The position numbers and the translations under genes are program-made. A stretch of DNA of 27,297 nt from the UHGV virus genome UHGV-0184544. One strand, 5' to 3'. The stretch's first letter is position 1. Each line of letters begins with the position of its first letter. Of this stretch, positions 7,953 through 9,926 are shown piece after piece. The notes under the pieces were generated by a model. It searched no databases and was not told the DNA's origin. It saw nothing but the letters and a program-made list of their open reading frames with translations. Origin of the DNA: a virus.

Positions 7953-9926
7953 ATGGCATTTAAACACTATGACGTGGTCAGGGCATCATCGCCGTCAGAC
8001 CTCGCAGGAAAACTGACGCAAAAACTGAAGGAAGGCTGGCAACCCTATGGTAGTCCGATTATCTCAAGCGCGGGTTATGGTGCTGAATTTATCCAGGCTA
8101 TAGTCGCTGAAGGGGATATGACCTCTCCGGTAGTTTCACCGGGGGGAGATGGTACCCGGACTGTTGTTGTTGAACCAGAATATTACTTTGTCATTGCGCT
8201 GGCCGGACAGTCAAACGGCATGGCGTATGGTGAAGGCCTGCCGCTGCCGGAGACATATGACCGTCCGGACCCGCGTATTAAACAGCTGGCGCGTCGCAGT
8301 ACGGTGACACCGGGTGGTGCGGCCTGTGCATATAACGACATCATTCCGGCGGACCACTGCCTGCATGATGTGCAGGATTTGAGCCGTTTTTCTCATCCGA
8401 AAGCCAGCGCAGAGCAGTATGGGTGTGTCGGACAGGGATTGCATATTGCCAAAAAGCTGTTGCCCTTTATGCCGGAAAATGCGGGTATTTTGTTAGTGCC
8501 GTGCTGTCGTGGTGGCTCTGCGTTTACAGCCGGTGCTGACGGAACGTTCAGTGAAAGTTCAGGAGCGTCGGATAAATCTGAACGATGGGGCGTTGATAAG
8601 CCGTTGTATAAAGACCTGCTGACACGCACTCAGGCCGCGCTGAAGGCAAACCCCAAAAACATACTGCTTTGTGTTGTCTGGATGCAGGGCGAGTTTGATT
8701 TAAAACAGGGAGCGTACGCCAGTCAGCCCGCCATGTTTGATGCCATGGTGGAAAAATACCGTTCTGACCTGGCGGGAGTATCCGGTCAGTGCGCTGGTGC
8801 TTCTCCTTCTCTGGTGCCCTGGATTTGTGGTGACACGACGTACTACTGGAAGGAGACGTATTCAGCGCAATACGATGCCGTCTATGGCGCATACAAAACC
8901 AAAGCCGGTAAAAATATCTTCTTTGTGCCGTTTATGATGGATGACAATGGTCAGAAAGTCGGGACCAATGAACCGTCAGAAGACCCGGATATTCCGGCTA
9001 TCGGGTATTATGGTTCCGGTGGACGAACGGATGCGAAGAGCTGGACAACATCCGATCGTAAAACCCACTTTGGTTCATGGGCGCGTCGCGGAATTATTTC
9101 CGACCGTCTGGCAACAGCCATTCTTCTGCATGTGGGCAGAGTGGCAGATTTTGTTTCCGGGAAAGTGACAAAAGCCGCGGTTTCTTCAGGCGGAGGCGTA
9201 TCGCAACCAGCACAGGAGAGTGGCGATACTCAGCCTGAAGCCGTTGTCCCGACAAAGATACAGTCAGTGCTGGCTTATGATGTGAATGCGGAAAATGCCG
9301 CTCTGGCTTCGCAGGGCTGGACGCTGACAGATGTCAAAAACACGCTGGTCAGTGACAGTGGTTCAGGTAAAAAAGCCCTTCGTCTTGAAAAACCAGAAAA
9401 TGGTCTTGCACAGAAAAAGACCTGGAAAGTATCGCACGCAATTGATGCCGGTAAGGGGAAGGAGCTGTTCGATAACGGCGGTGAAATCACGCTGCGCTTT
9501 AAAATCCCCGATGATGTATCTCTCAATGCTTCTGCAAATCAATATTCTGCGGGTATTTACTGGCGCGGTAGTGGATGGCCGGGAGCGGAATCAGAGGAGG
9601 GTTATATTGCGGCCTTCTATCTGCAGACTGATAAAACAAACATCAATGTGATGTATCATGCAAACACCACATCACAGCGGCTTGGTAGTTATGGTCCGTT
9701 CGATCACGACTGGCACACGCTGACTTTCCGCTTCCCGGGTGGTGGCTCGCTGAACGTCACGCCGGTGCTTGATAATGCAGCAGGAAAACCGTTTACGCTG
9801 ACCAGATGGACGAATGCAGCCTTTGAGGCCAACGCGCTGGCAATTACGGATATTACCGGAAATGCGGCAACTTACCCTGTGCTGATTGAAAGTCTTACTG
9901 TTGGTGTGAATGCCGTAGCAGCATAA
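7953..9926 (+). CDS. nanS-p: Prophage-type sialate 9-O-acetylesterase (NanS-p-like; N-terminal DUF1737-like region + SGNH/sialate O-acetylesterase domain)
   Basis: 657 aa from the ATG at 7953 (GGGAGG 4 nt upstream); ORF track extends to a TTG at 7923. N-terminus MAFKHYDVVRASSPSDLAGKLTQKLKEGWQPYG is DUF1737-like. VIALAGQSNGMAYGEG is the esterase catalytic-Ser block. Sits at the Q-to-lysis position where Stx phages carry stx and nanS-p. Confidence 0.75.
   Translation: MAFKHYDVVRASSPSDLAGKLTQKLKEGWQPYGSPIISSAGYGAEFIQAIVAEGDMTSPVVSPGGDGTRTVVVEPEYYFVIALAGQSNGMAYGEGLPLPETYDRPDPRIKQLARRSTVTPGGAACAYNDIIPADHCLHDVQDLSRFSHPKASAEQYGCVGQGLHIAKKLLPFMPENAGILLVPCCRGGSAFTAGADGTFSESSGASDKSERWGVDKPLYKDLLTRTQAALKANPKNILLCVVWMQGEFDLKQGAYASQPAMFDAMVEKYRSDLAGVSGQCAGASPSLVPWICGDTTYYWKETYSAQYDAVYGAYKTKAGKNIFFVPFMMDDNGQKVGTNEPSEDPDIPAIGYYGSGGRTDAKSWTTSDRKTHFGSWARRGIISDRLATAILLHVGRVADFVSGKVTKAAVSSGGGVSQPAQESGDTQPEAVVPTKIQSVLAYDVNAENAALASQGWTLTDVKNTLVSDSGSGKKALRLEKPENGLAQKKTWKVSHAIDAGKGKELFDNGGEITLRFKIPDDVSLNASANQYSAGIYWRGSGWPGAESEEGYIAAFYLQTDKTNINVMYHANTTSQRLGSYGPFDHDWHTLTFRFPGGGSLNVTPVLDNAAGKPFTLTRWTNAAFEANALAITDITGNAATYPVLIESLTVGVNAVAA

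Follow-up and report, generated by a model that had tools for sequence, protein, structure and literature searches.

The UHGV virus genome UHGV-0184544 (27,297 nucleotides (nt), the whole of which is referred to below as the window) contains a large open reading frame (ORF), nanS-p, which is preceded by a Q-like antiterminator gene and followed by the lysis genes in a phage that lacks the Shiga toxin genes (stx). The first-pass annotation, made from the sequence alone, described this gene as virulence-associated cargo, a NanS-p-type sialate O-acetylesterase in an stx-less late region. The best explanation, in which we place high confidence, is that nanS-p encodes a functional NanS-p esterase that would be expressed from the late operon of a phi24B/933W-like phage without the toxin, and that the protein would also be attached to the capsid. 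Three loci served for comparison, namely those of PhiR5_2 (PV340546; L001), a Stx2a phage (L002) and phi296 (L003).

Domain organization and family assignment of the nanS-p product

The ORF list and the sequence agree on a single intact nanS-p ORF of 657 amino acids (aa) on the plus strand, with the stop codon ending at 9926. The start codon was assigned to the ATG at 7953, and in the alignment the N-termini of the homologs all read MAFKHYDVV; an in-frame TTG at 7923, the start given in the mechanical ORF list, was rejected because the homologs do not use it. The gene and its parts are the following.

7944–7948, plus strand: Shine-Dalgarno sequence GGAGG, read off the sequence, 4 nt ahead of the nanS-p ATG
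7953–9926, plus strand: nanS-p, three-domain sialate O-acetylesterase (Pfam, PHROG 143, PDB, public proteins)
7959–8111, plus strand: DUF1737 N-terminal domain, aa 3–53 (Pfam PF08410)
8163–9125, plus strand: NanS-like SGNH/SASA esterase core, aa 71–391 (3PT5 match and motifs)
9264–9911, plus strand: C-terminal lectin-like jelly-roll domain, aa 438–653 (6YP6 match and Pfam DUF6645)

A Pfam search started with the nanS-p product identifies DUF1737 (PF08410) at aa 3–53 with E=3.6e-17 (62.4 bits, cut-off 24), SASA (PF03629) at aa 83–274 with E=1.4e-9 (38.3 bits, cut-off 24.8) and DUF6645 at aa 508–618 with E=5.7e-27, over the curated cut-off. The profile of PHROG 143 is covered almost completely (1–631 of 634, E=9e-299). 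Among all PDB sequences, the match for aa 71–391 is NanS/YjhS from Escherichia coli (3PT5, E=3.3e-118), and that for aa 438–653 is the crystallized C-terminal domain of a NanS-p protein (6YP6, E=3.3e-43). The DUF1737-like N-terminus and the GQSN esterase core noticed in the first-pass annotation are both present (Pfam; GQSN at aa 85–88), with similarity far above chance, and its claim of a NanS-p-type sialate O-acetylesterase is borne out by strong Pfam, PHROG and PDB matches, including those to 3PT5 and 6YP6, together with the retained catalytic motifs. All the features by which NanS-p can be recognized in a sequence are found here: DUF1737, the SASA/SGNH domain, the NanS blocks, the lectin-like C-terminus and the location between Q and S. 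On sequence grounds, the product of 7953–9926 is a NanS-p, that is, a member of the phage-type family of sialic acid de-acetylating enzymes.

The NanS-p proteins of Stx phages (z1466/L0105 of 933W; vb_24B_21, which is gp84, of phi24B, the source of the 6YP6 C-terminal domain) share with the window protein the combination of DUF1737, SASA core and lectin-like C-terminus, the SGNH blocks, the location between an sRNA (small RNA) unit and the DUF1378/DUF826/holin genes, and the capsid type of the phage. Four aromatic residues in the C-terminal domain are shared as well: the proposed sugar site of vb_24B_21 consists of Y510, Y515, Y540 and F611 (PMC10462455), which align with Y531, Y536, Y556 and F624 of the window protein. 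The identity of the window protein to gp84 is 58% overall by BLAST and 62% in a MAFFT alignment, and the nanS-p DNA is ~71% identical to the phi24B gene over the first 1.2 kb. Compared with the phi24B protein, the linker that follows the esterase core is longer by 13 aa in the window protein, and the C-terminal domain has diverged in its first half. By analogy with its characterized relatives, the C-terminal lectin-like domain probably holds the enzyme on glycans.

Catalytic core

The GQSN motif (aa 85–88) contains the predicted nucleophile Ser87 (codon 8211–8213), and the predicted base His372 (codon 9066–9068) is part of the motif R-K-T-H372-F. Two further NanS-type blocks are RGGSAF (186–191) and MQGEFD (244–249). 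In an alignment with NanS, phi24B gp84 and the NanS of phi296, the blocks GQSN, RGGSAF and MQGEFD, along with Ser87 and His372, are invariant, and the catalytic core is ~58% identical to NanS (MAFFT alignment). According to a survey of SGNH hydrolases, the corresponding blocks of NanS (3PT5) are 17-GQSNA-21, 120-RGGSAF-125, 178-MQGEFD-183 and R-x-S-H301-F-S, and the enzyme has no catalytic Asp, the histidine being touched by a main-chain oxygen (PMC10792757). The NanS-p proteins of Stx2a phages carry the same block variants as NanS (Pascal et al., PMC10462455). The first-pass annotation made its assignment hinge on conservation of a Ser/His/Asp triad. The Ser and His are kept, and the Asp part is inapplicable because NanS itself has no catalytic Asp.

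Chromosomal NanS (YjhS) and the window protein have a homologous core with the same blocks GQSN, RGGSAF, MQGEFD and R-x-[ST]-H-F, and a Ser-His dyad without a catalytic Asp; however, NanS consists of the core alone, without DUF1737 and without the C-terminal lectin-like domain. The gene for NanS is chromosomal and belongs to the nanCMS operon; it is not a phage late gene.

Every prophage NanS-p allele of EDL933 and O104:H4 that has been tested, a set that does not include the window allele, is reported to be an active esterase, and lysogens with NanS-p gain the use of 5-N-acetyl-9-O-acetylneuraminic acid (Neu5,9Ac2) and of mucin sialic acids (review, PMC8065619). In the window protein, the Ser87-His372 dyad in the SGNH fold would be expected to remove O-acetyl groups from 9-O-acetylated sialic acids, with predicted oxyanion and substrate-binding motifs that are those of chromosomal NanS.

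The site of the toxin genes and the late leader

The non-coding region that precedes nanS-p, together with the Q-like gene, contains the following features.

5889–6503, plus strand: Q-like late antiterminator gene, 204 aa (phrog_753 and the Q position after ninG and ninH)
6504–7952, plus strand: non-coding stretch of 1.45 kb
6528–6556, plus strand: candidate promoter PR', TTGCTT-17-TATGTT, inferred by reading only
6660–6695, plus strand: probable tR' intrinsic terminator, a 13-bp hairpin followed by a U-run (RNA fold)
6686–6999, plus strand: lambdoid late-leader segment 3' of tR', 92.7% identical to HK75 33663–33976 (between the tR' and the holin gene of HK75)
7044–7237, plus strand: STnc100-family sRNA unit 1 (Rfam RF02076, 139.9 bits), with a terminator at 7209–7228
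7273–7448, plus strand: degenerate STnc100-like unit 2 (30 bits, E=8e-4, under the gathering score of 47), with a terminator at 7422–7441
7447–7484, no strand: 38-nt spacer, the stx "empty site", in the place of the ~1.35-kb stx2 promoter-stx2AB cassette of Stx2a phages
7513–7721, plus strand: STnc100-family unit 3 (129.8 bits), with a terminator at 7691–7710

A tblastn search of the whole window with Stx2A and Stx2B from the Stx2a phage reveals no stx ORF or remnant (best E=1.2). This agrees with the first-pass observation that non-coding units, and no stx-like ORF, lie upstream of nanS-p; the units are three tandem STnc100-family elements (7044–7721). In a DNA comparison with the Stx2a phage, only the flanks of the stx2 cassette match the window. 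The terminator just upstream of stx2A (L002 3488–3513) aligns with the unit-2 terminator (window 7420–7445), and from about L002 4854, 46 nt past the stx2B stop, the alignment resumes at unit 3 and continues into nanS-p. Unit 3 is 76% identical to L002 4895–5302 and is the ortholog of the single unit that follows stx2B in Stx phages. In toxin-free phi296, the segment L003 4788–5307 is colinear with window 7420–7952 without interruption. Given that the flanks from the Stx2a phage match on both sides and that phi296 is colinear, this alignment with the stx-flanking regions, which the first-pass annotation had proposed, locates the site of the stx2 cassette at 7447–7484. The site at 7447–7484 bears no scar, and its sequence would fit both an ancestral lack of stx at this position and its clean loss. 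With neither stxA nor stxB between Q and nanS-p, the prophage falls outside the definition of a Stx-converting phage, although the structural and lysis modules are shared. The window can serve as a clean reference for the empty site, in which the stx2 cassette is placed within about 40 nt of conserved sRNA/terminator elements.

The homology to HK75 begins exactly at the 3' end of the annotated tR' of HK75 and runs along the late leader, so that the hairpin at 6660–6695 is the probable tR'; the 146-nt stretch 6555–6700 that contains it folds at z=-3.7. Along with the three terminators of the sRNA units detected by the scan, this fold brings to four the number of plus-strand terminators between the Q-like gene and the nanS-p ATG. 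The terminator scan of 6300–10700 on both strands yields 18 terminator-like sites compared to 4.3 +/- 2.2 in shuffled sequences, and a promoter scan of the same segment finds no sigma-70 consensus on the plus strand. The location of nanS-p between a Q-dependent leader and the lysis genes, as originally described, is confirmed by the Q-like gene upstream (5889–6503) and the lysis genes downstream, from the holin gene (10655–10870) onward. In Stx2a-phage alleles, mitomycin C raises nanS-p expression by 1 to 2.4 logs (PMC10462455), and nanS-p is among the most induced late genes (PMC8065619). Because the genes are co-oriented, four terminators intervene, no sigma-70 consensus is present and the CI-like repressor is predicted to be SOS-cleavable, Q-dependent read-through is favored, and expression from the late promoter on induction, as the first-pass annotation proposed, is the most economical model by analogy with these phages. 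Once the SOS response is triggered, cleavage of the CI-like repressor would be followed by synthesis of the Q-like protein; transcription initiated at PR' would then pass tR' and the terminators of the three sRNA units and enter nanS-p, the first protein-coding gene of the late operon, and after it the lysis and structural genes.

The arrangement of sRNA, esterase, holin and lysozyme genes has already been published for prophages of enteropathogenic and enterohemorrhagic E. coli (EPEC/EHEC), where the pasD/STnc100 locus resembles the window in that an STnc100/PasD sRNA immediately precedes the esterase gene, which is followed by the holin and lysozyme genes (bioRxiv 10.64898/2026.05.13.724894). 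The difference is that the window contains a tandem array of three units, whereas the multiple PasD copies described in that preprint are distal, not tandem; the tandem STnc100/PasD array may be unusual. The occurrence of stx beside PasA-type elements is rare in bacterial chromosomes, amounting to <3% of PasA genes (bioRxiv 10.64898/2026.05.13.724894). The stretch from the esterase gene to the holin gene yielded no PasA/PasC-type element, and the AgvB and AsxR families of Rfam have zero matches at E<=1 in 6300–10700. A 12-bp terminator hairpin (10588–10616, plus strand) separates the DUF826 ORF from the holin gene, at the reported PasA/PasC position of EPEC/EHEC prophages, and matches no Rfam family.

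Several minor features of the leader were also noticed. The late-leader segment 6686–6999 (~92% identical to HK75) is partly shared with Salmonella phages as well. Within it, positions 6865–6900 contain a motif resembling the T-arm of a tRNA (GGTTCGATTCC), and the homologous stretch carries a tRNA-Ser annotation in one Salmonella phage record. A tRNA at 6865–6900 was rejected, given that ARAGORN finds none, that the match in the tRNA clan of Rfam, to beta_tmRNA, is at chance level (E=0.35) and that the fold is no better than that of shuffled sequences (z=+1.3). On the minus strand, a strong terminator at 7732–7751 (8 bp, 7 of them G-C pairs, with a T8 tail) is located back-to-back with the unit-3 terminator, and a 42-aa ORF (7784–7912, minus strand) lies to the right of it; the terminator hairpin is retained by the Stx2a phage (L002, about 5085–5115). 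This configuration suggests a possible antisense transcript across the 5' untranslated region and the ribosome-binding site of nanS-p.

The DUF1737 domain and the capsid

The presumed partner of the N-terminal domain is encoded further downstream in the window.

19221–20435, plus strand: phi24B/933W-type (Sepvirinae) major capsid protein, to which DUF1737 presumably docks (Pfam Phage_capsid_3, E=4e-87)

In phi24B, gp84 is a major virion band, among the most intense; its DUF1737 hexamer (residues 2–57, with Tyr42 as the anchor) was modelled on the central hexon of each capsid face, and the enzyme part is apparently cleaved from the capsid after release (bioRxiv 10.64898/2026.04.10.717836). Alignments show that Tyr42 and Gly54 of the phi24B domain are kept at the same positions in the window protein, and the capsid protein of the window is 93.8% identical to that of phi24B over 404 aa. 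By analogy with gp84, the window NanS-p is probably attached to the capsid via DUF1737. Because the phi24B ortholog is a capsid-decorating protein, and both DUF1737 and the capsid protein are conserved here, the label of virulence-associated cargo in the first-pass annotation is probably incomplete.

Residues 1–59 of the window protein are 78% identical to the Stx2a-phage type. Among the matches listed, the identity of DUF1737 is 78% in Stx2a-phage records and 61–66% in the Stx1a, Stx2c and vB_EcoS records, so that, within this set, the DUF1737 variants appear to track the phage type; such tracking fits, without proving, a domain that is matched to the capsid.

By inspection, no hydrophobic signal-like stretch is found at the N-terminus of NanS-p. 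Because the protein has no signal peptide, it would leave the cell upon phage lysis; following the analogy with gp84, it would exit bound to the capsid via DUF1737, and the enzyme part would later be freed by proteolysis. Surviving lysogens would benefit in that Neu5,9Ac2 and mucin sialic acid would be made usable, and/or the virion would benefit through binding or crossing mucus.

The benefit to lysogens alone is the basis of the main rival explanation, which follows the framing of the first-pass annotation: nanS-p would be purely a lysogenic-conversion moron, encoding a nutritional or colonization enzyme that is freed by lysis of a subpopulation and has no role in the virion. The growth advantage of lysogens on Neu5,9Ac2 and the de-O-acetylation of mucin glycans by NanS-p (PMC8065619) are in line with this possibility. 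Furthermore, a DUF1737 N-terminus of the window type is found in 347 phage records compared to about 192 records with a capsid protein at least 80% identical, which implies that the domain is not tied to one capsid. PhiR5_2, moreover, was deposited as a complete phage, with K-12 MG1655 as the host, despite the annotation of its nanS-p as split by a frameshift. However, the intense virion band of the phi24B ortholog and the modelling of its DUF1737 on the capsid (bioRxiv 10.64898/2026.04.10.717836), together with the good conservation of both DUF1737 and the capsid protein in the window, point to a virion role, and the frameshift in PhiR5_2 would spare DUF1737 as a peptide of its own and may stem from an error in sequencing the homopolymer. 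Given this evidence, we consider a moron without a virion function rather unlikely.

Location on the virion would also be compatible with a receptor-modifying or receptor-destroying enzyme, which would de-O-acetylate the O-antigen or a polysialic capsule during adsorption or release, rather than act on host mucin. This idea was raised as untested in PMC8065619; it is consistent with the virion location of gp84 (bioRxiv 10.64898/2026.04.10.717836) and with some carriers that are labelled as uropathogenic E. coli or clinical. The probability of this explanation appears to be quite small because the core is ~58% identical to NanS, which acts on free Neu5,9Ac2, because the characterized NanS-p alleles act on sialic acids and mucin (PMC8065619), and because the preprint suggests that the enzyme domain is cut from the capsid after release (bioRxiv 10.64898/2026.04.10.717836).

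Several observations weigh against a functional esterase that is expressed from the late operon and displayed on the capsid. The identity to the characterized 933W/phi24B protein is only 58%, the C-terminal half being the most diverged part, with no match to phi24B at the DNA level over 9146–9698, and an NCBIfam search with the nanS-p product matches zero models. The candidate PR' is a weak match to the consensus that was not called by the promoter scan, so that expression of nanS-p may be independent or constitutive. The putative cleavage motif beside DUF1737 reads G54-DMTSP in the window and G54-SISSP in phi24B, with only S-P in common, and the capsid-decoration result comes from a single preprint (bioRxiv 10.64898/2026.04.10.717836). 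The functional, late-expressed and capsid-attached esterase is nevertheless the explanation that we prefer.

A more far-reaching possibility, which we consider improbable, is that in toxin-free commensal or extraintestinal E. coli NanS-p would be mainly a capsid-displayed, self-releasing, mucus-targeting device and not a bacterial fitness gene, and that the STnc100-like tandem array would be both a recombination scaffold for cargo, such as the stx2 cassette, and a source of sRNA produced by early termination in the absence of Q. The array is read as a scaffold because the stx2 cassette is precisely flanked by a unit-2-type terminator on one side and by unit 3 on the other. As a toxin-free phage of the phi24B type, the window would make it possible to address the biology of NanS-p, whether in capsid decoration or in host nutrition, with no need to work with a phage that encodes a toxin.

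Relatives and distribution

A prophage in the chromosome of E. coli JNEC-KY204 shares 99.9% identity with the segment 6400–9926; the NCBI pipeline annotates the gene there as "SASA family carbohydrate esterase", and the identity to this prophage is 99.1% over window 5510–23598. Among 5,426 complete E. coli genomes, 19 contain 6400–9926 at coverage of at least 80%; the sources of the carrier genomes are human clinical samples, feces of healthy humans, wastewater and a frigatebird. Some match to this segment is detected in 2,107 of the genomes, with a median of two places per genome. The exact window protein is already public (e.g., EEW8596625.1), on 16 contigs, and its 90% cluster includes 387 members named DUF1737-domain protein, SASA family carbohydrate esterase or sialate O-acetylesterase; other 657-aa proteins of this cluster are found on hundreds of contigs.

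GenBank records include toxin-free 933W-like phages, and nanS-p is present as in the window in the phages or prophages PhiR5_2, PhiR12_3, vB_EcoP_phi296 and PPwrbA. Phi296 has the same stx-empty junction, consisting of the terminator, the spacer, an STnc100-like unit and nanS, but differs from the window in having three tRNA genes and a 933W-type NanS allele. PhiR5_2 (PV340546) is 99% identical to the window across 5800–10700, from the Q-like gene to the holin gene, and 97.6–99.7% identical over window 5510–17414; it was deposited as a complete phage genome. The occurrence of nanS-p in toxin-free prophages is documented, with seven alleles (ten in a later count) in EDL933 and five in O104:H4 (review, PMC8065619). 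The family, its enzymology, the location 3' of stx, the occurrence without the toxin and the likely capsid role are already known, and this exact protein is already deposited.

Frameshifted copies exist among the relatives. The deposited sequence of PhiR5_2 differs from the intact window copy in a G6-to-G7 frameshift after codon 63; the G7 run is located at about 8335–8343 of PhiR5_2 (window 8135–8141), in the linker just past DUF1737, and the frameshift divides the gene into a part for a DUF1737 peptide of 73 aa and another whose start lies past the catalytic Ser. The G7 run may be genuine or may reflect a sequencing error in the homopolymer. In strain G8, a frameshift unrelated to that of PhiR5_2, at gene nt ~818, results in annotation as a pseudogene. 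Recurrent slippage at the G-run was rejected given that the G8 frameshift is elsewhere and the SW070917 copy is intact.

These frameshifted copies are what speaks for a decaying remnant, in which the prophage would be defective and the gene silent or inactive. In the window, however, the copy is intact, with PHROG 143 covered nearly end to end and all motifs kept; the exact sequence recurs on its 16 contigs and the cluster relatives of the same length on hundreds more; and the regulatory, lysis and structural modules of the window are complete, with the near-identical PhiR5_2 deposited as a complete phage. A remnant is accordingly the least probable of the explanations considered here, to the point of being barely credible.

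Gene context and phage type

Apart from the genes listed above, the following were identified in the window.

30–743, minus strand: CI-like repressor with HTH (helix-turn-helix) and S24 peptidase domains (Pfam Peptidase_S24, E=7.5e-29, and HTH_3)
1956–3476 and 3466–4437, plus strand: helicase- and primase-like genes
4888–5457, plus strand: NinG
5454–5654, plus strand: NinH
10068–10262, plus strand: DUF1378 ORF
10174–10578, plus strand: DUF826 ORF
10655–10870, plus strand: P21-type holin (Pfam Phage_holin_2_1; PGAP annotation of a near-identical locus)
10875–11408, plus strand: lysozyme (Pfam Phage_lysozyme; PGAP annotation of a near-identical locus)
11901–12368, plus strand: Rz (Pfam Phage_lysis; PGAP annotation of a near-identical locus)
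12545–13096, plus strand: Rha-type regulator
14183–15889, plus strand: terminase
15889–18033, plus strand: P22-like portal
22588–24603, plus strand: collagen-repeat tail fiber

The gene order nanS-p, DUF1378, DUF826, S, R, Rz is the same as in phi24B and the Stx2a phages. Window 13105–23945 (10.9 kb) is 88.3% identical at the DNA level to the structural module of phi24B, and the identity of the lysis genes is 80–94%. At the same time, the backbone is a mosaic in which neither the Q-like gene nor the segment just 3' of it is that of 933W, the gene of the Q933/Q21 type and the three tRNAs being absent; ARAGORN finds no tRNA genes in the window compared to three each in the Stx2a phage and phi296. 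In contrast to 933W and phi24B, the window thus has no stx, no tRNA genes, a Q-type gene of another kind and three sRNA units instead of one. The first-pass description of a Stx-phage backbone lacking the toxin stands as far as the structural and lysis modules, the gene order and the absence of stx are concerned, but has to be amended for this mosaicism, with a Q-like type different from Q933 and three missing tRNAs. Comparison of these sequences supports classification of the prophage as a mosaic, toxin-free E. coli phage of the phi24B/933W type (Sepvirinae-like).

The Q-like protein matches phrog_753, "anti-termination protein Q-like", with E=3.3e-68. Searches of Pfam and PDB with this protein yield no family and no meaningful relative, respectively, and its role is assigned from the PHROG annotation and the position of the gene; a PDB match to ERp29 (E=0.005) was judged spurious. 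The 204-aa protein encoded at 5889–6503 may represent an uncharacterized Q family.

The immunity and replication region (window 1–5509) is unlike that of the otherwise 99%-identical JNEC-KY204 prophage and, from 3292 onward, matches the Stx2a phage L002 at 96.7%; this illustrates the shuffling of modules among these phages.

Finally, a 356-aa ORF (26016–27086, plus strand), located 3' of the tail-fiber genes, encodes a protein with a YadA-like membrane-anchor domain, a trimeric autotransporter that is possibly Eib-like. This ORF sits in a low-GC segment (25000–26500, 36–42% GC) and is a second candidate cargo gene of the prophage.

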